Of a DNA stretch of 64,000 nt, positions 3,549 through 31,556 are shown one piece after another (position 1 is the first letter of the stretch; each line of letters starts with the position of its first letter). The position numbers and the translations under genes were made by a program. Under the pieces are notes generated by a model. That model did no database searches and was not told the DNA's origin. It was given only the letters and a program-made list of their open reading frames with translations. This DNA is from Escherichia phage HY01: the sequence record NC_027349.1; one strand, given 5' to 3'.

Positions 3549-4679
3549 TTATGGATAGGTATAGATGATACCAGTTTCTAAAGCAGTTTTATGAATGATG
3601 TATCCATTACGCGATTCTTGAACATCAACTTCTGGATAGTCTTTCATCATCTTCTGAAGAGTGTAACGATGCAAGTAGTACTTACTATCTGGGTCGTCAG
3701 TTTTCCAGTCTTTACCTTCTTCAGTCATTTTTTGGATTTCATCCATAACCCACCAACCGCACCAGATATAAGCTGAAGTACGATGTGGAAGAGGATGAAC
3801 ATAAGGTAATTCACCTTCTGGTTCCGGAGCAACTTTATCAGTTACCTGAACTTGACCTTCTGCTGTGATAGTTTTGCTATCATAATCAGTAGCGGTAACA
3901 GTTGCAGTAACTTCAATAGTTTGACTTCCAACAGATGAGGTATCGACAGTATATACGTTAGTTGACCCTTCTACAGGAGAAGAATCTTTCTTCCACGAGT
4001 AAGTAATTTGTGCTGCCTCAGGTGCGCCAGTAACATTAGCAGTAAATGTAGCCGAAGCATCTTGCTGAACATTAATAGAAGGAGGAGTCAATGTAACCTG
4101 TGGATTCATTGTCTTCTTATTAACAGTCAGTGATACTTCATTAGAAGTAACGCTCAGTGCATCATAATCTGCCGCGGTTACTTGAGCTACACACTTAATT
4201 TTTTTAACTCCGCTTGTAGTAGGAGTGTAATTGAATGTAGCACTAGTTGCTTCGCTCACAGGAGAACCATCTACATGCCACTGATACGTAGCAGATGCGC
4301 CTGATGGTTGAGAAGCTAAGGCAGCAGTAAATTGAACTGGGGTTCCAATTACTCCAGCAGCAGGACTAGCAGGAGTTACAGCTAAGGTAGTTGTCTGTGT
4401 CTTGTTTTGAACTGTGATAGTTGTAGTAGCTTCTGCTGTTTCAGCATCAGTATCTGGAACTGTGTTTGTTGCAACTACTTTAATAGTCTTTTGACCAGCA
4501 GGTCCTTTTAGTACATAACTAAAAGTTGCTTCAGTTCCATCTTGCGGAACATCGTCTACAGTCCAAGCATAGGTAATAGTTCCACCTCCAGTTTCACCAC
4601 TGGGTGTAGCAGTAAACTGCTGAGTCTGATCTATAACTCCAGTAGGGGTTTTAGGAGTTATATCAACTGTAAAAGCCAT
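3549..4679 (-). CDS. hoc: Hoc, highly immunogenic outer capsid decoration protein (Ig-like repeats)
   Basis: 376 aa, T/S/V-rich repetitive Ig-like sequence, C-terminal capsid-binding region; same length as T4 Hoc. Confidence 0.85.
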   Translation of the reverse strand: MAFTVDITPKTPTGVIDQTQQFTATPSGETGGGTITYAWTVDDVPQDGTEATFSYVLKGPAGQKTIKVVATNTVPDTDAETAEATTTITVQNKTQTTTLAVTPASPAAGVIGTPVQFTAALASQPSGASATYQWHVDGSPVSEATSATFNYTPTTSGVKKIKCVAQVTAADYDALSVTSNEVSLTVNKKTMNPQVTLTPPSINVQQDASATFTANVTGAPEAAQITYSWKKDSSPVEGSTNVYTVDTSSVGSQTIEVTATVTATDYDSKTITAEGQVQVTDKVAPEPEGELPYVHPLPHRTSAYIWCGWWVMDEIQKMTEEGKDWKTDDPDSKYYLHRYTLQKMMKDYPEVDVQESRNGYIIHKTALETGIIYTYP

Positions 4680-4688
4680 AAGTTATCC

Positions 4689-5369
4689 TTATTTTAATGT
4701 TACGAAAGAAGAGTTGCGTGTTTCACGAATTAGAACTGATCCGTCACGGTTAATGTAGTAAATTAAGCTAAATAAAGTTTGGTGTGCCGACGCGTGTTCA
4801 AAACTAGTTGGGTGAGATTTCCAATCCGGAGTTTCAGCAATCCACTGGTAAATCCACCAAGGAACAGTGCAGAATCCTGGATTTTTTCCAATCAGCTGAA
4901 GATTCGGACTAAAGTTTTCCGGAAGAGTAAATACAGACGGCTTTTCAGATTCAATAATCTCAGCTACGGCCTGCTCGAATTTTTCTTCAACAAAAGGAGT
5001 ATCTTCAATCAAAACATCGGTATTTTCAGGAATTTTATCCTTTTCTACTACTTCAATTTTAATGTCAGATTTAACCGGAGAATCAATCAGAAGTGCTGCT
5101 TCTGGATTGACTTCTTCATCGTCATATTTTAATCCTTCTGCAGCATCAGCAGCATTAATTAAGTCTTTAATAGATAACCCATCAGTCTCTGGCATAGGTT
5201 CACTAGCGAGCTTCTGGAGGGCTTCTTCAATATCAACAACGATATTATCAAAAGATTTATTCTTTTTGACCTTTATACCAAACTGTTCAGCATATTCAGC
5301 TAATTTAGCTTTAGCTTCTTTATTATCATCAAGAGCCTTCAGCTCTGCAATATAATCTTTATCTATCAT
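4689..5369 (-). CDS. inh: Inh, inhibitor of prohead protease gp21
   Basis: 226-aa ORF in the conserved position between hoc and uvsW. Confidence 0.75.
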   Translation of the reverse strand: MIDKDYIAELKALDDNKEAKAKLAEYAEQFGIKVKKNKSFDNIVVDIEEALQKLASEPMPETDGLSIKDLINAADAAEGLKYDDEEVNPEAALLIDSPVKSDIKIEVVEKDKIPENTDVLIEDTPFVEEKFEQAVAEIIESEKPSVFTLPENFSPNLQLIGKNPGFCTVPWWIYQWIAETPDWKSHPTSFEHASAHQTLFSLIYYINRDGSVLIRETRNSSFVTLK

Positions 5370-5382
5370 AATATTTCCTCAG

Positions 5383-5390
5383 TATAAATA
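5383..5390 (+). promoter_or_regulatory. Late promoter TATAAATA upstream of uvsW
   Basis: Exact TATAAATA 30 nt upstream of the uvsW ATG. Confidence 0.55.
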
Positions 5391-5419
5391 TAGATATATT
5401 TATTACATGGTATTTAGAC

Positions 5420-6931
5420 ATGACTGACATTAAAGTACATTTTTATGATTTTAGTCACGTGAGAATTGATTGTGAAGAAAGTACATTTCATGAACTCCGT
5501 GATTTCTTTAGCTTTGAAGCTGATGGGTATCGTTTTAATCCGAAGTACAAATATGGTCATTGGGATGGGCGAATCCGTCTTTTAGATTATAATCGACTTC
5601 TTCCATTCGGCTTAGTCGGGCAAATTAAAAAGTTCTGTGATAACTTTGGCTATAAAGCCTGGATTGACCCGCAGATTAACGAAAAAGAAGAATTATCAAG
5701 AAAAGATTTTGATGAATGGCTTTCTAAATTAGAAATCTATTCAGGAAATAAAAGAATTGAACCGCACTGGTATCAAAAAGATGCAGTGTTCGAAGGATTA
5801 GTTAATCGTCGTAGAATTCTTAATCTTCCAACATCCGCAGGTAAATCTTTAATTCAAGCTTTGCTTGCACGTTATTATTTGGAAAATTATGAAGGTAAAA
5901 TTCTTATCATTGTTCCAACAACTGCTCTGACAACTCAGATGGCTGATGACTTTGTTGACTATCGTTTATTCAGTCATGCAATGATAAAGAAAATCGGTGG
6001 TGGAGCATCAAAAGATGATAAATATAAAAATGATGCACCAGTAATTGTTGGTACATGGCAAACTGTAGTAAAACAACCAAAAGAATGGTTCTCGCAGTTT
6101 GGAATGATGATGAACGATGAATGCCATCTTGCCACAGGAAAAAGTATTTCATCTATCATATCAGGTTTAAATAACTGCATGTTCAAATTTGGTCTATCGG
6201 GTTCATTACGTGATGGCAAAGCTAATATCATGCAGTATGTTGGAATGTTTGGTGAAATATTTAAGCCAGTAACGACTTCTAAATTAATGGAAGATGGACA
6301 AGTAACTGAGTTAAAAATTAATAGTATTTTTCTTCGCTATCCTGATGAGTTCACTACTAAATTAAAGGGAAAAACTTACCAAGAAGAAATAAAAATTATT
6401 ACTGGGCTCAGTAAAAGAAATAAATGGATCGCTAAATTAGCTATTAAGCTTGCGCAAAAAGATGAAAACGCTTTTGTCATGTTTAAACATGTATCACATG
6501 GTAAAGCTATTTTCGATTTAATTAAAAATGAATACGATAAAGTTTATTACGTATCAGGGGAAGTTGATACCGAAACCCGCAATGTAATGAAAACCTTAGC
6601 TGAAAATGGTAAAGGAATAATTATAGTAGCTAGTTATGGTGTATTTTCTACTGGTATTTCAGTTAAAAATCTGCATCATGTTGTTTTAGCGCACGGTGTT
6701 AAATCTAAAATTATTGTATTGCAAACAATAGGTCGCGTATTACGTAAGCATGGTTCTAAAACAATCGCAACAGTCTGGGACCTCATAGATGATTGCGGTG
6801 TTAAGCCAAAATCTGCTAATACGAAAAAGAAATACGTTCATTTGAACTATCTTTTAAAACACGGCATTGATCGTATTCAGCGCTACGCAGATGAAAAATT
6901 TAATTACGTAATGAAAACAGTTAATTTATAA
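5420..6931 (+). CDS. uvsW: UvsW, SF2 DNA/RNA helicase for recombination and repair
   Basis: 503 aa; Walker A PTSAGKS and DECH box; near-identical to remembered T4 UvsW. Confidence 0.95.
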   Translation: MTDIKVHFYDFSHVRIDCEESTFHELRDFFSFEADGYRFNPKYKYGHWDGRIRLLDYNRLLPFGLVGQIKKFCDNFGYKAWIDPQINEKEELSRKDFDEWLSKLEIYSGNKRIEPHWYQKDAVFEGLVNRRRILNLPTSAGKSLIQALLARYYLENYEGKILIIVPTTALTTQMADDFVDYRLFSHAMIKKIGGGASKDDKYKNDAPVIVGTWQTVVKQPKEWFSQFGMMMNDECHLATGKSISSIISGLNNCMFKFGLSGSLRDGKANIMQYVGMFGEIFKPVTTSKLMEDGQVTELKINSIFLRYPDEFTTKLKGKTYQEEIKIITGLSKRNKWIAKLAIKLAQKDENAFVMFKHVSHGKAIFDLIKNEYDKVYYVSGEVDTETRNVMKTLAENGKGIIIVASYGVFSTGISVKNLHHVVLAHGVKSKIIVLQTIGRVLRKHGSKTIATVWDLIDDCGVKPKSANTKKKYVHLNYLLKHGIDRIQRYADEKFNYVMKTVNL

Positions 6932-15457: not shown

Positions 15458-15461
15458 CAAT

Positions 15462-15491
15462 GGGGACCGAAAGGTCCCCATATTTTTATTT
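15462..15491 (+). terminator. Hairpin terminator after gene 54 (GGGGACC-GAAA-GGTCCCC plus T-run)
   Basis: Perfect 7-bp stem with GAAA loop followed by ATATTTTTATTT. Confidence 0.6.
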
Positions 15492-15776: not shown

Positions 15777-15807
15777 TTTGTGTTCCTCATGTTATGTCAG
15801 TAAGATT

Positions 15808-15837
15808 ATTATAACACAACACGAGGGACTTGTAAAC
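15808..15837 (-). promoter_or_regulatory. T4-type early promoter (GTTTAC-N18-TATAAT)
   Basis: Minus-strand GTTTAC at 15837-15832 and TATAAT at 15813-15808; part of a ~55-bp repeat also found upstream of alc. Confidence 0.55.
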
Positions 15838-17894
15838 TACATCTTGAACTTTTTAGACATTCCGTTGATGTTAACCAAAGAAGCCAAGATTTGAGAAACT
15901 TCGTTTTCCTCTTCTTTTGATTCTTCTACAAGGAATTGATTAAACCCAGCCATTGGACGAACTTCACCAGTTTCCATTAGATGATCGCCATCATATACCG
16001 ATTCTTCTAATTGTTCAGAAGGAGGAACGATTGTGCCTTCAATTAGATACTTGTTATAAGCAGTTTCTTTCATCATGTACGTGCTTACTTTATTAATCTT
16101 CAACAAAATTCCACGCGGTAGAATAACTTCAGCTTCTGATGGAAATCCCGATAAATGACCTGGAACGATAACTTTGATTCGCTCAGCCCCTTTAATTACC
16201 ATACCTACGCTAGTTTCAGCATCTTCATTCGCATAAGCAGAATGACTGCCCATATGCATTAAATCTTCAGCATCAACAGAACCTTCTCCTTCACCAGAAA
16301 ATACTGCGCCGGAATCATCTAGAGCCATATAGTTTTTACCATGCTCACCGAAGATATTTGGTTTAAGCGATGTTGATACGAAGTTCTTGAAATAGAACAT
16401 TTTATTTTCAATATTATGGCGTAAAGTTTTAAAAGTAACTTCTTGTCCACGATAAAGCGTAGTTCCTGGAGGAAGAACTGAACCTTTGGCAAAGGCAGAA
16501 TCCAGCGTCTCGATGTGTTTAATAGCTCGTTCCATATATTCTTCACGGGTAGAATCTGGTTTACCCAAGAGGAACGAGTTCATTTCAACATATGAATCTG
16601 CACAATAATCTTCAATTACATCAGACTCAGCCTGAGTCAGTCCTTTTGGAGTTACTTCGGTGCTTGCGTATTCATATGCCTGAGCAGCAGATTCATTAAT
16701 CAATTTATAAATGCCATTCATGACAAATTGAATAATAGCTACCTTTTCGTCTGGCGTGGCTTTAGAACCTTTAACTAAATCATTGATAATTTTCTTAATA
16801 ACATCAAAGCTATTAGAAATATTAATGTCAGCGAGATCGCTCAAAATTTTATCGGTTTTATAATCAAAGAATTCTTTATTCTTTAAATATTCTTGAGAAC
16901 CTTGATGTGTTATATCGCTCTGCAGTCTGATAGACGGATCACGTAAACGTGCATGGGCCAATGCAATATGATTTCGGAAGCTTTCTAGTTCATAATCGTT
17001 AGATTTAAAACGAGAAGCACTTCTCATACCACCGATAGCTCCTTTACCGAAGTTTGAACCAATCTGAATAACGCCAGAGTTCATTGGTCCTTCTGCTTTA
17101 TATACCGGAACTTTAGATTCAAACTCTTGATATTTCTTAGCGGCAAAGCTATCACCCTGAAGCGAAGCATCGACAGTAGAATATTGAGCTTGCGCTGCTA
17201 ATCGACGACTAATTTTAGTTTTCTGAATAACAGCTTGATCCGTGCGCTTATCATTTTCTAAAGCAATAGAAGCGGCAACAGCAACAGCTTTAGGAACAGC
17301 ATTACCTGTTTTAACATCTACATAAACATCACCAACCTTTGATTCAACTTTTGTGAATAACTCAGTTGAAATAGGAGGTACACCTGGAATGTCTTCTAAA
17401 TTAGCATTTTTACGGTAAACCATAATATATGCGTACTTTTTATCGTAATCCCAGATTTCCTTTAAAAGAACATATCGACCTGCTCCTTTAGTACGTACTA
17501 AACGGTCGGCAATAACTTGCATTTGACGAGCTGCACCATTTGTTTTACTCTTTAGTACGCGGAATAAGCATGCGTCAATTTTGTATTGTTTCATTGTCTG
17601 AAGAGCAGTATCAAAAACCGCATTAATGACACCAATTGGATTTCCACCCAAGTTTTTAAGTTTAACTAATGATAGTTTCTCATTAACACCTATCATTACG
17701 ATATGCATCATTTTATCGCCTGGCTTAACGTTTTTATTTGTATCACCGCCAGAGGTGTATGTACAAAATCTAAATCCAGGAAGCACGCTTTCTTCACCGG
17801 CTTGAATAGCAAAAATTTGAGGTATTTTATGCTTAGGATTTAAGTTAACAACCGGCGCCGAAGCGCCGTCAAATAATTCTGTAATAAGTTCCAT
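15837..17894 (-). CDS. Alt-like ADP-ribosyltransferase paralogue
   Basis: 685 aa; N-terminal ~200 aa closely parallel Alt (MELITELFD...); C-terminal domain has R (YRGQ), STS (FVSTSL) and EAEVILPRG motifs; start 3 nt after the alt stop. Confidence 0.75.
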   Translation of the reverse strand: MELITELFDGASAPVVNLNPKHKIPQIFAIQAGEESVLPGFRFCTYTSGGDTNKNVKPGDKMMHIVMIGVNEKLSLVKLKNLGGNPIGVINAVFDTALQTMKQYKIDACLFRVLKSKTNGAARQMQVIADRLVRTKGAGRYVLLKEIWDYDKKYAYIMVYRKNANLEDIPGVPPISTELFTKVESKVGDVYVDVKTGNAVPKAVAVAASIALENDKRTDQAVIQKTKISRRLAAQAQYSTVDASLQGDSFAAKKYQEFESKVPVYKAEGPMNSGVIQIGSNFGKGAIGGMRSASRFKSNDYELESFRNHIALAHARLRDPSIRLQSDITHQGSQEYLKNKEFFDYKTDKILSDLADINISNSFDVIKKIINDLVKGSKATPDEKVAIIQFVMNGIYKLINESAAQAYEYASTEVTPKGLTQAESDVIEDYCADSYVEMNSFLLGKPDSTREEYMERAIKHIETLDSAFAKGSVLPPGTTLYRGQEVTFKTLRHNIENKMFYFKNFVSTSLKPNIFGEHGKNYMALDDSGAVFSGEGEGSVDAEDLMHMGSHSAYANEDAETSVGMVIKGAERIKVIVPGHLSGFPSEAEVILPRGILLKINKVSTYMMKETAYNKYLIEGTIVPPSEQLEESVYDGDHLMETGEVRPMAGFNQFLVEESKEEENEVSQILASLVNINGMSKKFKM

Positions 17895-17897
17895 GAT

Positions 17898-19991
17898 TTA
17901 TCCTTGAACGAACTTGTAAGGCATGTTTGTAATATCTATGCAAGACGCAATAATTCCGAGAGATGATTCTGCTTTCTGTTTAACATTTGATGAAACAAAT
18001 GATGCAAAGTCAACTCTGTCTTCTATTTCAATATCACCTGTCATTGCAACTACTTCGCCGGTTTCCATTAAACGGTCACCGTCATAAATTACTGATTCGG
18101 TGAGTTCTTCCGTAGTCATAACTTCAGCTTGAATGAGTTTTGTATTATTAGATGTTGTTCCGTCATTATTAGAAGCATCAGTTATTTTATTAACTTTGAC
18201 CATCAATCCGCGTGGTAGAATAACTTCAGCTTCTGTTGCTATTCCGAGACTTCCTGGATATACAACATTAACTTTATGAGCTCCATCAATTGCCCATCCT
18301 ATTTGAACTTTAACGTATTCAGGATTTTCTTTATACGCTCTTATTTCGTTTGGATTAATAGTTATTCCTTCTTCATTTTTATCAACTGTCAATTCATTAC
18401 GAGCTTCTGGTTCTAAAAGACCAATACCAGCATGTGTAATTCCAAAACGTCCAAAAATGATAGGAGTTAAAGAAGTAGATACAAAATTTCTGAAATAGAA
18501 TACTTTATTTTTAACTAGTGCTTCGTATATAGGAGCAGTCATACTTTGAGCACGATAAACTGTAATGCCTTCTGGTATACGGTCGCCATTTTCAAAAGCT
18601 GAATCTAAGTTATTTATAGCAGATTCAATTTCTTTTTCACTCATTACATCATATCGTTCTGGATTGTAGCGTCCTAAAAGAAGATTATTGATGTCAGTAT
18701 ATCCTGAACCGCAATACTCTCTAATGCCACGCTTTTGTGATGGAGTATATTTAGAACCATCACGGGCAATAGTAATATCAATCATTGGACCTGCACCAAT
18801 TCCAGAAAAACTATAAATCATTCTTTTGAGGAATTTAGTTTTTGCTGCGTTCCAGGAATTTTTAGTTATTTCTTCCCAGACTTCATCTGGCTGTCCTTTA
18901 CGGGTTTTATTATGTTTATCAAGCCAATTATCTTTATATTCTTCAAAGAGTTGATTAACAGCTGCTGCGTATTTCTCTAAACATTTTATTGAAGTAGTTG
19001 GTTCATTTTTAATCGCATTAAGAATTACATCTTTAATTTTTTCAGAAACTTCATTAACCTCACTTTTTGAAAAGAATTTATAATCATAGTGAAGTTCATC
19101 TGCAGTTCCTTCGGCAATAATTTTTGCTGTCTTAGTTTTAGAAGCTAATGAATTAATTCCAAGTTTCATTTCTTCTGCTTCAGGAATTAAAGGAGCTGTA
19201 GCATGTTTATTAAAATTGGCTGCGGTAGATTCATACTTCTGGAATAATTCGCTTTCAAATCTAGAAGATTCTAATGACTGGCTTTGTGCAATTGCTCTAC
19301 GGGAAATTTTAACTTTAACGATTACAGCTTGGTCAGAACGTTTATCATTTTCTTGTGCAATAGATGCTGCAATTGCCTCATTTTTAGTTACTTGAGCTCC
19401 GGTATCTTTATTGATATAAACATCACCGACCTTCGATTCAACTTTAGTAAAGAGCTCGGTACTAATTTCCGGAACTCCTGGAATGTCTTCTAGTGATACA
19501 TTTTTGCGATGTATAAGAATATATGCATACTTTTTATCATAATCCCAGAGTTCCTTAAGAAGGACGTATCTGCCACCTGAACGACTACGGATAAGTCTAT
19601 CAGCAATAACTTGAATTTGTCGAGCTTGACCAGCAGTTTTAGACTTAAGAATACGAAGCATGCAGGCATCAATTTTATACTGACGCATCGTCTGCATTGC
19701 AACAGTAAAAACTGAATTGATGTAATTAATTGGACTTGGACCGAGACCTTTTAATTTAGCAATTGAACCTTTAGCAGTTAGTGTAAAAGGAACAATGTGC
19801 ATCATTTTATCGCCCATCTTTAAATCGCGATTAGTATCACCTCCAGATGTATAGGTACATAAACGAAAGCCTGGTTGTTCAATTGCGTCATCAACATGAA
19901 CTGAAAAAATTTGTGGTATTTTCTTCTTTGGATTTAAGTTTGTAATCGGAAGAGTAGTATCTTCGTCAAATAATTCTGTAATAAGTTCCAT
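17898..19991 (-). CDS. alt: Alt ADP-ribosyltransferase (capsid-packaged RNA polymerase modifier)
   Basis: N-terminus MELITELFDEDTTLPITNL... matches remembered T4 Alt; ART motifs YRAQ / FVSTSL / EAEVILPRG; second ATG chosen as start. Confidence 0.9.
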   Translation of the reverse strand: MELITELFDEDTTLPITNLNPKKKIPQIFSVHVDDAIEQPGFRLCTYTSGGDTNRDLKMGDKMMHIVPFTLTAKGSIAKLKGLGPSPINYINSVFTVAMQTMRQYKIDACMLRILKSKTAGQARQIQVIADRLIRSRSGGRYVLLKELWDYDKKYAYILIHRKNVSLEDIPGVPEISTELFTKVESKVGDVYINKDTGAQVTKNEAIAASIAQENDKRSDQAVIVKVKISRRAIAQSQSLESSRFESELFQKYESTAANFNKHATAPLIPEAEEMKLGINSLASKTKTAKIIAEGTADELHYDYKFFSKSEVNEVSEKIKDVILNAIKNEPTTSIKCLEKYAAAVNQLFEEYKDNWLDKHNKTRKGQPDEVWEEITKNSWNAAKTKFLKRMIYSFSGIGAGPMIDITIARDGSKYTPSQKRGIREYCGSGYTDINNLLLGRYNPERYDVMSEKEIESAINNLDSAFENGDRIPEGITVYRAQSMTAPIYEALVKNKVFYFRNFVSTSLTPIIFGRFGITHAGIGLLEPEARNELTVDKNEEGITINPNEIRAYKENPEYVKVQIGWAIDGAHKVNVVYPGSLGIATEAEVILPRGLMVKVNKITDASNNDGTTSNNTKLIQAEVMTTEELTESVIYDGDRLMETGEVVAMTGDIEIEDRVDFASFVSSNVKQKAESSLGIIASCIDITNMPYKFVQG

Positions 19992-20014
19992 CATATCCTC
20001 TCTAGTGTTTATTC

Positions 20015-20022
20015 TATTTATA
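20015..20022 (-). promoter_or_regulatory. Late promoter (TATAAATA on minus strand) upstream of alt
   Basis: Plus-strand TATTTATA at 20015-20022, about 24 nt upstream of the alt ATG. Confidence 0.5.
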
Positions 20023-20042
20023 AAATTAAAGGCCCGAAGGCC
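20018..20042 (-). terminator. Hairpin (GGCC-CGAA-GGCC) terminator between the 62-aa ORF and alt
   Basis: Stem-loop at 20031-20042 with a U-rich tract on the minus strand; overlaps the late promoter. Confidence 0.4.
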
Positions 20043-20043
20043 T

Positions 20044-20232
20044 TTAATAATCTAGTGGTAAGAGAGTACGGTATATTTCAAACTTTGGCCCTTTTTCATA
20101 GGCATCAAATGTTTCTGTAAATTTATTATAAGCATACGCATCTACAAATTCGAGAATGACTTGCGATACCGAAGTAGAAACATCTCCACCTTCTTTTTGA
20201 GCTATAACAATTGTTTCTAAGTAAGCTTTCAT
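20044..20232 (-). CDS. Hypothetical small protein (position of T4 alt.1)
   Basis: 62-aa ORF, start overlaps the ligase stop. Confidence 0.55.
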   Translation of the reverse strand: MKAYLETIVIAQKEGGDVSTSVSQVILEFVDAYAYNKFTETFDAYEKGPKFEIYRTLLPLDY

Positions 20233-21689
20233 AGACCAGTTACCTCATGAAAATCACCAAATACATCCTCGAATGTATTAGCTTTAGTTTTATCTTCACG
20301 TAAACGAATCACAATCGGAAGAAATAATTTAACGTAATCAGTGCGGCCATCAGATTTTAACCAACCATTGCATTCGCACTCTAGAATTTTTCCAATATAA
20401 TAATTTTGGTTTTCCATAATGCGAGTACGGTCAAGTTCATGCGATTTTACACCGGCTTTATCTTTTAAACCTGAACCAGCATTTACTTTAATTTTTCCAC
20501 ACTCTGATTCAAGAATAAATCCACCTGCTTTAGTAGGGTCTTTACGGTGAGGATAAATTCCTACAATTTTTAAATCAACATCAATTACTTCTTTAAATTT
20601 ATAAAGATTTTTTGAACGAGCATTTTCCCACAATCCATCGGTATTTTTGAGAATAATACCTTCAAGACCTTGGTCAATATACTTTTTATAAATTACCTTA
20701 GCTTCATCTAGGTTATTTACTACTTGGTTTTCAATTAAAATTACTTTATCATATCCTGATGTCATTTGTTCTAGTTTAGAAAACCGTACATCATATTTTA
20801 AACGAAACGCCGGAAGACCGTATATTTCTACTAACGGGACATAATCCCAGACCTGAAACTTCATACATTGAGCTTCTTTTTCTGAAATAGTTCCCTTTAA
20901 AGATTTATTGGCAATTCCATTAGAAGTAGTACGAGATTCCGCTACTTCGGCAAACTCTTTAGCTTTACTGATTTCAGGAGCATCAAAAAGAAAATCTAGG
21001 CCTTCTGGTTCCTTTTTAACTTGCTCATGGTATACCAATTCGCCATCAATTAACACACCTTCTGGATGAATCTGGCGGGCTTCTGCGGTCATTTTGATTA
21101 ATTCTTCTTTAAGAAGATCTAATCCTAGATATTCATTACCAGCTCGTGATAAAAGACGAACATCATCTAATTCATCACCTCTAACTTCAGCAAAACACCG
21201 GGCTCCATCTGCTTTTAACTGTGCAAAGGCTGGAAATTTGATATTCTTACTAATGCCTTTTTCATCATAAGAACTTGCCAGCATTTGAGGTTGTTCAGGA
21301 ATTAAACCTGGCCAAACTTTATTTGCAATAGATACCGAAGCACCGCATTCGAGGTCTCGCATCATAACTCGACGCAAAACTTCAACATCATCCTTTTTAC
21401 CATCAGTGATATATCCAGTTAATTCCTCAATTGCAGCATTTCCAGTCAATTTCCGAGTAGCTAACGTGAATTCAATGAAGTCAAGCATATCGGTAATAGT
21501 CAGCATTCCAAAACTCTGAGTAGCAATACCAGGTTTAGGCCATTTCTTGATATAATACTGTAACCCACGAGAATAAGTCAGACGATATACTCGTTTAAGC
21601 AATTCGTTATCTTTATTCCTTTCAAGAATTGCTTGCTTCTGCTTAGTTGATCCAATAGATGCTATTTCATTCAGAATTTTAAGAATCAT
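20229..21689 (-). CDS. 30: ATP-dependent DNA ligase gp30
   Basis: 486 aa; adenylation motif KADGAR; N-terminus MILKILNEIASIGSTKQKQAIL matches remembered T4 ligase. Confidence 0.95.
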   Translation of the reverse strand: MILKILNEIASIGSTKQKQAILERNKDNELLKRVYRLTYSRGLQYYIKKWPKPGIATQSFGMLTITDMLDFIEFTLATRKLTGNAAIEELTGYITDGKKDDVEVLRRVMMRDLECGASVSIANKVWPGLIPEQPQMLASSYDEKGISKNIKFPAFAQLKADGARCFAEVRGDELDDVRLLSRAGNEYLGLDLLKEELIKMTAEARQIHPEGVLIDGELVYHEQVKKEPEGLDFLFDAPEISKAKEFAEVAESRTTSNGIANKSLKGTISEKEAQCMKFQVWDYVPLVEIYGLPAFRLKYDVRFSKLEQMTSGYDKVILIENQVVNNLDEAKVIYKKYIDQGLEGIILKNTDGLWENARSKNLYKFKEVIDVDLKIVGIYPHRKDPTKAGGFILESECGKIKVNAGSGLKDKAGVKSHELDRTRIMENQNYYIGKILECECNGWLKSDGRTDYVKLFLPIVIRLREDKTKANTFEDVFGDFHEVTGL

Positions 21690-21955: not shown

Positions 21956-22818
21956 TAGAATGCTCCTTGGAAAATATTATCACCACTAGTAAATCTATTA
22001 AAATACCCTGCATCACCAGGCTTAGTATAACTCCACGTATGGAATGGATTCATATGATACGGGTGTGTATAATATGGATTATATGGATGTGTATAATATG
22101 GATTATACGGATTAAATCCAGGAGTTCTCCAGGTAGTGTTCCAAGGAAAAGAATCGGTTTTAACCATCTTCTCAATTACATCTTTTATAGCTTTTTCACT
22201 ATCAAAACTTTCTTTATTTTCCTTCGGTGAAAAAAGCTTATTTTCTACATCATTCCATGTATAAACTCGCTGAGCGGTTTTTGGAATATTATCACGCTCT
22301 CCTCGAGCCATCCAATAAACAGGAACATTTAATATTTCACTCGCGTGGTCGCAGTGGTGAGCGAGATCGTCAATATAACAAATTACGTTATATTTCTCTT
22401 TTGCCTTTTTGAACAACTCTTCTTTTGAAGAATCATGACCACACATCATTACTTCTGAGAAGGCACCAGGAAAAAGAGCATTCAAATTAAATTGACGATT
22501 TAATAGAGCATCAATAGAATCACCCAATGCTGTAACAGCTACAAAATTATAATCTTCTTTTAATTTGTTAATTACACACAGGGCATCTTTATATGGAGAC
22601 AAGTAACGAATAAAATCTGATCGATTGTATTTTTCAATTAACTTGACACCAAGTTCTTCATCACAATTAAAGAGTTTACCTGGAGAAATAAATTTCTCAT
22701 CTTGGATCATTTTTAAAATATGTTCTAACGGAAGATTATATTTCTGAGCAAAATAAGGAAGACCTGATTGCCAGCTTAAACATACTCCATCAATATCAGT
22801 TAAAATAGTAGGCTTCAT
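21955..22818 (-). CDS. HAD-superfamily phosphatase-like protein with C-terminal NPYYTHPY tandem repeat (position of T4 30.2)
   Basis: 287 aa; HAD motif I DIDGV near the N-terminus, DD motif later; 24-bp tandem duplication near the 3' end. Confidence 0.65.
   Translation of the reverse strand: MKPTILTDIDGVCLSWQSGLPYFAQKYNLPLEHILKMIQDEKFISPGKLFNCDEELGVKLIEKYNRSDFIRYLSPYKDALCVINKLKEDYNFVAVTALGDSIDALLNRQFNLNALFPGAFSEVMMCGHDSSKEELFKKAKEKYNVICYIDDLAHHCDHASEILNVPVYWMARGERDNIPKTAQRVYTWNDVENKLFSPKENKESFDSEKAIKDVIEKMVKTDSFPWNTTWRTPGFNPYNPYYTHPYNPYYTHPYHMNPFHTWSYTKPGDAGYFNRFTSGDNIFQGAF
22065..22112. repeat. Tandem 24-bp direct repeat (2 copies) inside the HAD-like gene
   Basis: gtgtataatatggattata(t/c)ggat repeated back-to-back; encodes the NPYYTHPY duplication on the minus strand. 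Confidence 0.7.
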
Positions 22819-23273
22819 AGAGAGTCTCTTAATAGGTTTAACACATCAATAAATTCAGCTTCAGTTAGTATTGTATCATCTTTTGTTAGACCACTAGCCA
22901 TGCTGTGCTTCAAAACTTTTCCTTTCGAGGCTTGTAATGCATCGCGAAAGCCCCTGTTTTGGAACGCTGCTTCAAAATATGCATTTGTGTATAGCTCTTT
23001 CCACGCCGGGGAGTATCTTGAAAACGGAACTCCAAGCCAGAACAATGTGCCACGGTCCTGAGCTCTTGCATAAGCTCGTCCAGCTTTTTGTGCGTCCAAC
23101 CCGGACATCCCAAATATACGTCTTTGCTGTTCAACATTTTTCACCTTACATCCTTGGAGGAATCCTTCGAGACCTCCAAATTGGATACCATCCATAACGA
23201 AAGGCCATTGGGCAAAATTGCTTAATGCACATGATGGCCATCTAAAATTGCTTCTAATCTCTAACTCAGACAT
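22815..23273 (-). CDS. NADAR-like (YbiA-type) domain protein (position of T4 30.3)
   Basis: Track start at 23279 is TTG; ATG at 23273 gives 152 aa; LSNFAQWPFVMDGIQF resembles the NADAR/DUF1768 N-terminal signature, from memory. Confidence 0.55.
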   Translation of the reverse strand: MSELEIRSNFRWPSCALSNFAQWPFVMDGIQFGGLEGFLQGCKVKNVEQQRRIFGMSGLDAQKAGRAYARAQDRGTLFWLGVPFSRYSPAWKELYTNAYFEAAFQNRGFRDALQASKGKVLKHSMASGLTKDDTILTEAEFIDVLNLLRDSL

Positions 23274-23472
23274 TTTCAATACTTATAATTTCAACATCAG
23301 CCCAATGACCATAGCAAGGAAGACGAAATTCAACTGGCCAGTTAGGGTCCTTTTCTAATATAATAGACTTAACTTGTGGTTCTTCATGTTCATCGGTATA
23401 CGGACCTTTATACGTTACTTTATATGTGACCTTAATGTACTGAATTCCAAAAATCTTATTAATTATATTCAT
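23266..23472 (-). CDS. Hypothetical small protein
   Basis: 68-aa ORF, ATG start, coupled. Confidence 0.5.
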   Translation of the reverse strand: MNIINKIFGIQYIKVTYKVTYKGPYTDEHEEPQVKSIILEKDPNWPVEFRLPCYGHWADVEIISIENV

Positions 23473-30651: not shown

Positions 30652-31001
30652 TTAGAAAGGTCCTGGATGTCTTCTGCGAACTTGTTGAAGGAGTTGTTGA
30701 TTTGTTTTTCAACCAATCCTGGCTTATGAGCCACCACATCCGCCTTCTTTGCATCTTTGCGCAGTTTTTCATTTTCACGCTCAATAGCAGCAATTGCCTC
30801 ACGATTTTTATTATTCATCGCATCAATATAATTATACTGAATTCGCAAATTATTTAATGCTAAAGCGTTTTCATTGGCCGTTTTTGTAATTTCTACAACA
30901 GACGTTTCTAATCTTTCAATTTTATTTTTTAAAATTAAAGAAGTTCCGCCCAATGCAATTACAATTAATAACAAGCCTGTTGTCGTATTACTTAATTGCA
31001 T
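30648..31001 (-). CDS. pseT.3: Inner-membrane spanin component, i-spanin (Rz equivalent)
   Basis: 117 aa; N-terminal TM helix (LLLIVIALGGTSLIL) then coiled-coil-like sequence; adjacent to the lipoprotein ORF. Confidence 0.6.
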   Translation of the reverse strand: MQLSNTTTGLLLIVIALGGTSLILKNKIERLETSVVEITKTANENALALNNLRIQYNYIDAMNNKNREAIAAIERENEKLRKDAKKADVVAHKPGLVEKQINNSFNKFAEDIQDLSK

Positions 31002-31495
31002 AAAGTTTTAATAACCTCTATAATATCGTCTTGAGAAAGACCGTTAATTAAAATATGATGTTCAGCCGGAGATTTAGAAATTTTAAAGCATGCCTCAACA
31101 TCTTCTGCCATATCCGATGCGCTACGATTTGGATTACTAATTCCAAGACGATGTTTTCCCGTTAAAGGATTAACGATGATATAGCATTTACAGTTATTAA
31201 TATGAACATTAGGTTGAGTCTGATTAATGAATACATCACAATCATATTTCGCAAGCTGATTTTCTAAAAAGACTTTCATCTCCTCAACTGCATCAGGAAG
31301 CATATCACGGGCTTGCTCAAGACGACGATTTCGATATTCTTTAATGGTCGTTTTCCGCTTGACTTGCTTAGCTAAATCTTTCTTAAGATCGGTGATATAT
31401 CCAACTCGACGATTTCCTTTAAATACAGAAATCCCATCTGTAGTATCACCGTATGCTTCAACGACCATCTCAGTAGTAATAAGCTGCAAATCCAT
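30992..31495 (-). CDS. alc: Alc, terminates transcription on cytosine-containing DNA
   Basis: 167 aa, same as T4 Alc; directly downstream of an early promoter. Confidence 0.8.
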   Translation of the reverse strand: MDLQLITTEMVVEAYGDTTDGISVFKGNRRVGYITDLKKDLAKQVKRKTTIKEYRNRRLEQARDMLPDAVEEMKVFLENQLAKYDCDVFINQTQPNVHINNCKCYIIVNPLTGKHRLGISNPNRSASDMAEDVEACFKISKSPAEHHILINGLSQDDIIEVIKTLCN

Positions 31496-31526
31496 TATAA
31501 AGTCCTCATGTTATGTCAGTAAGACT

Positions 31527-31556
31527 ACTATAACACAACACGAGGGACTTGTAAAC
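31527..31556 (-). promoter_or_regulatory. T4-type early promoter for alc (GTTTAC-N18-TATAGT)
   Basis: Part of a ~55-bp near-identical copy of the promoter/leader at 15783-15837. Confidence 0.55.

Follow-up and report, generated by a model that had tools for sequence, protein, structure and literature searches.

A conserved second Alt-type gene downstream of alt in Escherichia phage HY01, a candidate injected ADP-ribosyltransferase that survives in T4 as a deletion remnant

Escherichia phage HY01 carries, in tandem, two full-length genes of the T4 Alt family of ADP-ribosyltransferases (ARTs), here called alt-A and alt-B, which were analysed in a 64,000-nucleotide stretch of its genome record (NC_027349.1; hereafter the window, with positions counted from its first letter). 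An initial annotation, made from the letters of the window, had described them as two adjacent minus-strand open reading frames (ORFs) at 17898-19991 and 15837-17894, and both their location and their class proved correct. The two genes are paralogues predicted to encode arginine-type (R-S-ExE) mono-ADP-ribosyltransferases. Our favoured explanation, which we hold to be probable rather than secure, is that Alt-B is a second late-made, head-packaged and injected arginine ADP-ribosyltransferase with a target of its own; its packaging, activity and target are what we infer from the evidence set out below. Nearly all knowledge of injected phage ADP-ribosyltransferases stems from T4 Alt, and T4 holds a disrupted copy of this highly conserved second family member, which most of its relatives, T2 and T6 included, still encode. 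Should Alt-B be injected and act on a target of its own, natural T-even phages would take over the host with one enzyme more than the textbook count. What is new here is that T4 is a natural Alt-B null through a shared deletion allele, that Alt-B occupies a conserved slot and Alt-A a dimorphic one, and that effector cassettes move by recombination inside a conserved delivery frame.

The gene pair itself is an uncharacterised member of a well-known and annotated gene family, and no new kind of system. Over 4.6 kb around the pair, the sequence matches Escherichia phage PEC04 (KR233165, Tequatrovirus hy01) at 100% identity and dozens of further Tequatrovirus genomes at 97-98%, and the two-gene region is covered to at least 80% by 278 phage records. 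The PEC04 record calls both ORFs 'putative adenosylribosyl-transferase packaged protein', the RefSeq name for both is 'Alt-like RNA polymerase ADP-ribosyltransferase', and both proteins are matched over their full length by PHROG 802 ('Alt-like'; 1e-271 and 8e-256). The tandem arrangement is already annotated in hundreds of T4-like phages, among them T2 and T6, which the initial annotation had not recognised. Alt-B appears in other records as alt.-2 (ime09, T6) or altb (JS10). Its slot lies between gene 30/alt.1 and alt.-3/gene 54 on the early-gene strand, as in the T4 Alt family. Duplication of alt has been noted before: Nolan et al. (2006) included T4 alt.-1, alt.-2 and related ORFs in a list of alt-derived paralogous duplications and reported that phage 44RR has a full-length duplicate (PMC1524935), and Jin et al. 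(2014) noted alt duplication in ZZ1, Ac42, JS98 and Bp7 (PMC4177764). In comparative reviews, Alt is a member of the Alt/VIP2 R-S-E clade and has a conserved late context beside baseplate genes (PMC5512222, PMC9503650). The enzyme assays in the literature cover T4-type Alt only, and our literature search returned no virion proteomics of a two-alt Tequatrovirus and no experimental work on the second paralogue.

The two proteins share an architecture of an N-terminal alpha/beta domain (hereafter N-domain), a helical linker, a C3/VIP2-like ART domain and two short terminal peptides at L/I-x-E motifs; in Alt-A these parts comprise the N-domain (residues 1-238), the helical middle, the ART domain (R480, S505-T-S507, E587-x-E589) and a C-terminal propeptide after LTE632. 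Pairwise alignment, which the initial annotation had proposed as a check, gave 41% identity between Alt-A and Alt-B (E = 9e-158, BLASTP). The N-terminal 200 or so residues had been called near-identical; this was too strong, since identity is 161/240 (67%) over residues 1-240 and 68.6% over 688 nt at the DNA level. The N-domain, at 67%, is nevertheless the best-conserved part between the paralogues, identity falling to 36% in the ART domain and 20% in the helical middle, and the two ART domains diverge in the loops that precede ExE and follow STS. The catalytic signature (R / S-T-S / E-x-E) is retained by both proteins, as had been claimed, with YR480AQ, FVS505-T-S507L and E587-A-E589VILPRG in Alt-A and YR482GQ, FVS507-T-S509L and E587-A-E589VILPRG in Alt-B, and these residues are invariant in a 20-sequence alignment of the family. 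Pfam ADPrib_exo_Tox matches Alt-A at 1.6e-37 and Alt-B at 3.2e-20. Mutation of the second glutamate of the ExE motif in T4 Alt (E577A in the authors' numbering) abolishes activity (PMC11404850). The motif reads E-A-E in both HY01 proteins (16128-16136 and 18225-18233) and E-M-E in T4 Alt (residues 574-576), where the second catalytic glutamate, counted on NP_049811, is E576; the difference from E577A looks like an offset of one.

An AlphaFold2 model of Alt-B (predicted local distance difference test, pLDDT, 75; predicted template modelling score, pTM, 0.68) contains the alpha/beta N-domain, a long helical region and the ART domain, and is disordered only at residues 1-10 and 630-685, with pLDDT below 50 over residues 630-685. 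The N-domain modelled alone reaches pLDDT 84 and pTM 0.82; its assignment to PF26846 is the precomputed Pfam assignment of the Alt-B cluster. A sequence search with Alt-B alone found no match among solved structures, and a profile search of solved structures found C3-like and binary-toxin ARTs only, over the catalytic part only. These toxins (Vis, C3bot, VIP2, CPILE-a, Certhrax, SpvB) share the fold of the catalytic domain and its R-S-ExE active site, but they are secreted bacterial proteins without the Tevenvirinae N-domain, gp21 propeptides or virion delivery, at 13-25% identity. The T4 enzymes ModA and ModB are about 200 aa long and lack the N-domain; assignment of Alt-B to this type is ruled out by its 685 aa, its N-domain, its propeptides and the lack of an early promoter upstream. 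ModA and ModB belong to the same ART clade and phage group as Alt (PMC5512222) and, unlike Alt, are described as coming into play later in the T4 cycle without delivery from the head (PMC5512222, PMC9503650).

Comparison with T4 changes the picture of both genes. Alt-A resembles T4 Alt in its slot, four-part architecture, R / STS / ExE residues, gp21 motifs at both ends and upstream hairpin and late promoter, and is its positional orthologue, yet a mosaic. Against T4 Alt (NP_049811) it is 70% identical overall, but the figure varies by part (N-domain 100%, helical middle 31%, ART domain 67%, C-terminal part 92%) and is about 48% over the whole variable region (tblastn); synonymous divergence (dS) between the two genes is 1.2-1.3 in the centre as opposed to 0.16-0.23 in the flanks. 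The N-domain of Alt-B is 67% identical to that of T4 Alt, and its effector region (middle plus ART) differs further, at 14-37% identity as against 31-67% for Alt-A. The initial annotation had taken the upstream gene for canonical Alt and the downstream gene for a divergent copy. With an Alt-A effector only 31% (middle) to 67% (ART) identical to that of T4, this cannot be upheld, and neither protein is therefore the biochemically characterised enzyme; the substrates of T4 Alt are not simply transferable to either PEC04 protein. The variable region of Alt-A is in fact dimorphic, with a PEC04/T2/T6 type in 312 records and a T4 type in 170 that are about 48% identical to each other, so the T4-type Alt effector cassette is the minority allele.

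Behind the same junction, the Alt-B slot of T4 is occupied by alt.-1 and alt.-2 (NP_049810 and NP_049809; PHROGs 23015 and 15247), which according to the T4 record arose long ago when the beginning of alt was duplicated. Together they correspond to the first ~116 Alt-B codons at about 96% DNA identity, with a 1-nt frameshift at about codon 54, followed by an internal, out-of-frame deletion of 1.69 kb that runs between the near-repeats CTAAAGAGT and CTAAAAAGT, and the PHROG families built on them match Alt-B much better than Alt-A. PEC04, T2 and T6, which have the full-length gene, show that alt.-1/alt.-2 are a deletion remnant of a full-length Alt-B and not a partial duplication. The same frameshift and deletion junction are found in the natural isolates vB_EcoM_G8, which has a T4-type Alt-A, and vB_Eco_BGP, which has a PEC04-type Alt-A. 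Since the same null allele stands beside different Alt-A alleles, it is one old recombined allele and no laboratory artefact. The remnant lies at 5066-5451 of the T4 locus (L002), 4339-4724 of the vB_EcoM_G8 locus (L012) and 4848-5233 of the vB_Eco_BGP locus (L013). In Shigella phage sb1 (L003, 5309-7366) Alt-B is annotated as two ORFs of 177 aa and 415 aa, and the gene there was either disrupted a second time, independently, or misread in sequencing. Intact genes of 697 aa and 685 aa are present in both T2 and T6, and the T6 record remarks on an 'apparent insertion in alt.-2'.

These broken copies in T4, G8, BGP and sb1 might suggest that Alt-B is a decaying, non-functional duplicate, a reading that we regard as very improbable. 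Its variable region (residues 239-631) is found at 95% identity or more in 399 phage records (tblastn), with almost nothing between that group and the ~49%-identical altb of Dhakavirus, whose orthologues themselves argue against decay. The gene is intact, without internal stops, in all seven phages compared, among which the ratio of nonsynonymous to synonymous substitution rates (dN/dS) is 0.025-0.054 at dS 0.12-0.28; by region, it is lowest in the N-domain (0.016), followed by the C-terminal peptide (0.027) and the ART domain (0.033), and highest in the middle (0.086). Values of about 0.04 at dS up to 0.28 effectively refute decay. Instead, the substitution pattern points to a constrained, functional gene under strong purifying selection, the less variable of the two slots.

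Dhakavirus phages provide a further comparison. JS10/JS98 (alta/altb) and QL01 have tandem full-length alt paralogues with the same spacer junction and the same flanking genes. The effectors are orthologous across the genera: the ART domain of Alt-A is 94% identical to that of JS10 alta, and Alt-B is 59% identical to JS10 altb, as against 36% between Alt-A and Alt-B, and the C-terminal endings are specific to type (KFVQG or KFIQG in the A type, KFKM in the B type, the latter shared by Alt-B and JS10 altb). The N-domains differ in this respect, grouping by genome, so that they resemble the other copy in their own phage (65-89% identity) more than their counterparts in the other genus (42-47%). 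The ART cassette of Alt-A (18100-18730) is 90% identical to JS10 alta (L004) at the DNA level, with dS 0.43, while the flanking N-domain and C-terminal parts are only about 47-52% identical and saturated at synonymous sites; the pattern indicates that the cassette was probably exchanged with Dhakavirus in a relatively recent transfer between genera.

Chimeric genes are also found. Four database proteins (P0003, P0004, P0005 and P0007) combine B-type effectors with A-type N-terminal sequence that reaches different crossover points, and in two metagenome contigs A-type sequence passes into B-type sequence at clean crossovers, near nt 540 and nt 660. Each of these contigs has a single chimeric alt gene that joins an A-type N-terminus to a B-type effector, at 5001-7055 of L014 (Logan SRR24155011) and 5001-7061 of L015 (Logan SRR19633722); in L014, which is 65 kb long, no other alt gene stands between alt.1 and alt.-3. 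The metagenome chimeras imply unequal recombination between paralogous N-domains, or are possibly assembly artefacts from short reads. QL01 (L005, 1096-7356) has three tandem alt genes, each junction consisting of stop, 3-nt spacer and ATG; the copy in the middle is b-like at the N-terminus and a-like at the C-terminus, and its effector region shares only 13-40% identity with the others. From the orthologous effectors, the N-domains grouped by genome, the chimeras and the QL01 array, we conclude that the locus behaves as a recombining array of exchangeable effectors in a conserved frame.

The same comparisons bear on what Alt-B does once delivered. It could be packaged and act on the targets of Alt-A (RNA polymerase alpha and others), raising the dose or serving as a back-up. 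Architecture and catalytic triad are common to both proteins, T4 manages with one Alt, natural isolates without Alt-B exist, and so do single-gene A/B chimeras. Against such redundancy stand the low identities of the ART domains (36%) and helical regions (20%), and the retention of distinct A and B orthologous pairs across genera under purifying selection, which is unexpected of purely redundant genes; we think redundancy quite unlikely. Because the ART domains are only 36% identical, their loops differ and the orthologous pairs predate the split of Tequatrovirus and Dhakavirus, Alt-B most likely modifies a different host protein, or set of proteins, than Alt-A.

Expression of alt-B would depend on the gene in front of it. 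As the initial annotation had stated, the two genes are separated by 3 nt: the junction caAGGAtaaatcATG comprises the alt-A stop (17898-17900), a 3-nt spacer and the alt-B ATG (17892-17894), with AAGGA at 17901-17905 inside alt-A. It is identical in seven Tequatrovirus loci, and CAAGGGTAAATAATG stands at all Dhakavirus junctions. The late promoter claimed upstream is also present: TATAAATA occupies minus-strand positions 20015-20022, starting at -31 and standing 24 nt before the alt-A ATG (19991). Its position is the same in T2, T6, SH7, NBG2, 121/2022-2B and SHFML-11 and is -36 in T4, and Dhakavirus JS10 and QL01 have the variant CATAAATA in its place. The octamer is not enriched in this AT-rich window (11 found, 9.2 expected); support for the upstream copy comes from its conserved position, not from the motif itself. 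Sigma-70-like matches in the region are likewise at chance (17 found, 19.1 expected). No MotA-type middle promoter was found in the region, which has one bare MotA-box core inside alt-B without a matching -10, and no conserved promoter between the two alt genes in the loci compared.

Just upstream of the late promoter lies a UUCG hairpin with a fold energy of -13.5 kcal/mol (z = -2.76), which is conserved in all Tequatrovirus and Dhakavirus loci examined and annotated as a terminator in phage G8. A simple terminator scan missed it, its T-run being consumed by maximal stem extension. The start of alt-A is placed at 19991 (697 aa) and not at the first ATG (17898-19994, 698 aa), because GAGG at 19997-20000 is 5 nt from the former and 2 nt from the latter, and because T4 Alt starts MELITE.

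The promoter at 20015-20022 is not, as had been claimed, the only promoter-like element upstream of alt-B: alt-A contains another exact copy of TATAAATA in the same orientation, at 18611-18618, which is 717 nt ahead of the alt-B ATG. If this were the late promoter of alt-B, the genes would not strictly form one transcription unit. It is an exact octamer on the correct strand and is shared by T2, T6 and 121/2022-2B. Because NBG2 lacks it despite an Alt-A allele of the same type, and SH7 and SHFML-11 (T4-type allele, intact Alt-B) and T4 lack it too, it is probably fortuitous; the octamer, moreover, occurs in the window at chance frequency and the coupled junction is invariant. A separate promoter for alt-B at this site is unlikely in our view.

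T4 data speak to the preferred reading of a single late unit. The T4 alt protein is late (PMC9697503). In the supplementary classification of a T4 omics study, alt, alt.-1 and alt.-2 share one RNA class, and alt.1 and alt.-3 are early, alt.-3 at both the RNA and the protein level. The shared class would fit read-through from alt into the downstream slot, and the classes also fit a separate early promoter directly after the Alt-B stop that starts a new unit for alt.-3.

Processing motifs connect Alt-B to the head. T4 Alt is cut by the prohead protease gp21 at ITE-6 and LTE-619, as mapped by mass spectrometry (PMC5694885). Alt-B has MELITE-L and QLEE-SV at the positions aligned with these sites, and the predicted sites coincide with the disordered ends of the model; with cleavage predicted at Glu631, residues 632-685 would be a propeptide. 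Alt has been described as a prohead core protein besides an enzyme (PMC11404850, PMC9026906), and Alt-B might accordingly be no injected effector at all, acting in the producing cell or serving mainly as a structural component of the core with a secondary enzymatic activity. That its packaging is read from indirect evidence leaves room for this alternative, which we consider decidedly unlikely, given the conservation of both gp21 motifs and of the N-domain, catalytic residues that do not vary in the family alignment, and a dN/dS of 0.033 in the ART domain.

We therefore return to Alt-B as a packaged, injected enzyme, for which the following course may be proposed. Both genes would be transcribed late as one message of ~4.2 kb from TATAAATA at 20015-20022, just past the hairpin that ends the ligase/alt.1 unit, and Alt-B would be translated by coupling across the 3-nt spacer. 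Both proteins would enter the scaffolding core through their shared N-domain and termini, be trimmed by gp21, remain in the head and be injected with the DNA, after which each would modify its own host protein or proteins. N-domain and termini would form a conserved delivery frame, the effector part being swapped by recombination within and between genera. The core of the initial annotation, a late unit whose second product is probably packaged and directed at another target, is partly supported in that all indirect evidence agrees with it, and the idea of a late, packaged paralogue gains strength from the conserved gp21 motifs, the purifying selection on Alt-B and the expression classes seen in T4.

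Several points weigh against this explanation. We infer the packaging, cleavage, activity and substrate of Alt-B, the separate target from sequence divergence alone. The T4 omics study classes alt RNA as 'middle' and not 'late', so that transcript kinetics are not purely late. The exact TATAAATA inside alt-A may leave room for a separate late start of alt-B in PEC04, T2 and T6. Finally, Alt-B is dispensable in at least some lineages, T4, vB_EcoM_G8 and vB_Eco_BGP sharing a broken allele and the gene being split in sb1.

More tentatively, and with rather less confidence than we attach to injection and a separate target, the alt locus as a whole may be a polymorphic-effector array, in which a head-delivery frame (N-domain and two gp21-cleaved propeptides) carries interchangeable ART cassettes that are reshuffled even between genera. 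Alt-B would be the most conserved cassette, a second injected ART with its own host target, possibly a component of a defence or toxin-antitoxin system, and would have been overlooked since T4 carries a natural null.

The distribution of the N-domain is relevant to this proposal. A profile of the domain found 73 cluster representatives among 1.84 billion proteins; in ten representatives of unusual length or low score that were scanned, an ART domain was present in six, and in four representatives the C-terminal region was non-ART and of no recognised kind. At the sequence level the N-domain is nearly confined to Alt-like ARTs. Foldseek comparison with viral models gave significant but loose matches (TM-score about 0.5) to large proteins of unrelated myoviruses, some named zeta-toxin, ParB or deaminase. 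With structural matches so loose and the sequence nearly limited to Alt-like ARTs, the N-domain as a widespread delivery module is kept as a lead only. Identification of the domain as a GNAT acetyltransferase was not adopted either: the fold resemblance is weak, a permissive Pfam scan of ten N-domains returned no match, and no GNAT motif was recognised, the conserved K80-x-x-G83 stretch having only a partial resemblance to the acetyl-CoA binding motif Q/R-x-x-G-x-G/A. A role in delivery, head-targeting or core-binding is proposed for the N-domain as one that would fit the combined results.

Table 1. Coordinates of the alt-A/alt-B genes, their predicted signals and the flanking features in the window.
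Feature	Position	Strand	Remarks
Gene 30, DNA ligase	20229-21689	-	
alt.1, 62 aa	20044-20232	-	Last gene of the early/middle unit after gene 30 ligase; Pfam Phage_blade 1.9e-29
UUCG-tetraloop hairpin, AUUAAAGGCC-UUCG-GGCCUUUAAU	20025-20048	-	Terminator-like; separates alt.1 from the alt genes
T4-type late promoter motif, TATAAATA	20015-20022	-	Starts 31 nt upstream of Alt-A ATG
Alt-A, 697 aa	17898-19991	-	Orthologue of T4 alt by position
Second exact TATAAATA, inside alt-A	18611-18618	-	Probably fortuitous
Shine-Dalgarno AAGGA for Alt-B	17901-17905	-	Within the last two alt-A codons
Alt-B, 685 aa	15837-17894	-	Full-length Alt paralogue
Alt-B N-terminal alpha/beta domain, residues 11-238	17181-17864	-	PF26846 Tevenvirinae_ADPRT
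Alt-B ART domain, residues 416-625	16020-16649	-	
Alt-B R482 codon; S507-T-S509; E587-A-E589	16449-16451; 16368-16376; 16128-16136	-	
Glu6 of MELITE-LFD	17877-17879	-	Predicted N-terminal gp21 cleavage site of Alt-B
Glu631 of QLEE-SVYDGD	16002-16004	-	Predicted C-terminal gp21 cleavage site of Alt-B
Strong early promoter (TTTACA, 17-nt spacer, TGTTATAAT)	15808-15836	-	Directly after Alt-B stop; 11/12 matches and extended -10
alt.-3, 96 aa	15486-15776	-	DUF5498; early gene outside the alt late unit
Bidirectional terminator hairpin	15460-15481		Between alt.-3 and convergent gene 54

Two further observations concern the surroundings of the gene pair. The only extra match of the region within the window is a repeated early-promoter cassette: the early promoter and leader GTTTACAAGTCCCTCGTGTTGTGTTATAATAATCTTACTGACATAACATGAGGA that follow Alt-B (15784-15837, minus strand) recur at 31503-31556 on the same strand with 96% identity, ~15.7 kb away, where the repeat copy precedes a 167-aa ORF (30992-31495). 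Repeated early-promoter cassettes have been proposed to mediate module shuffling in T4-type phages, and the GTTTACAAGTCCCTCGTGTTGTGTTATAATAATCTTACTGACATAACATGAGGA repeat looks like a cassette of this kind. Upstream of the ligase gene, a 154-aa ORF on the minus strand (22815-23279) fills a stretch of the PEC04 record that lacks an annotated coding sequence (L001, 13120-13566); it stands at the position of T4 gene 30.3 (152 aa) and is probably an unannotated 30.3 homologue.

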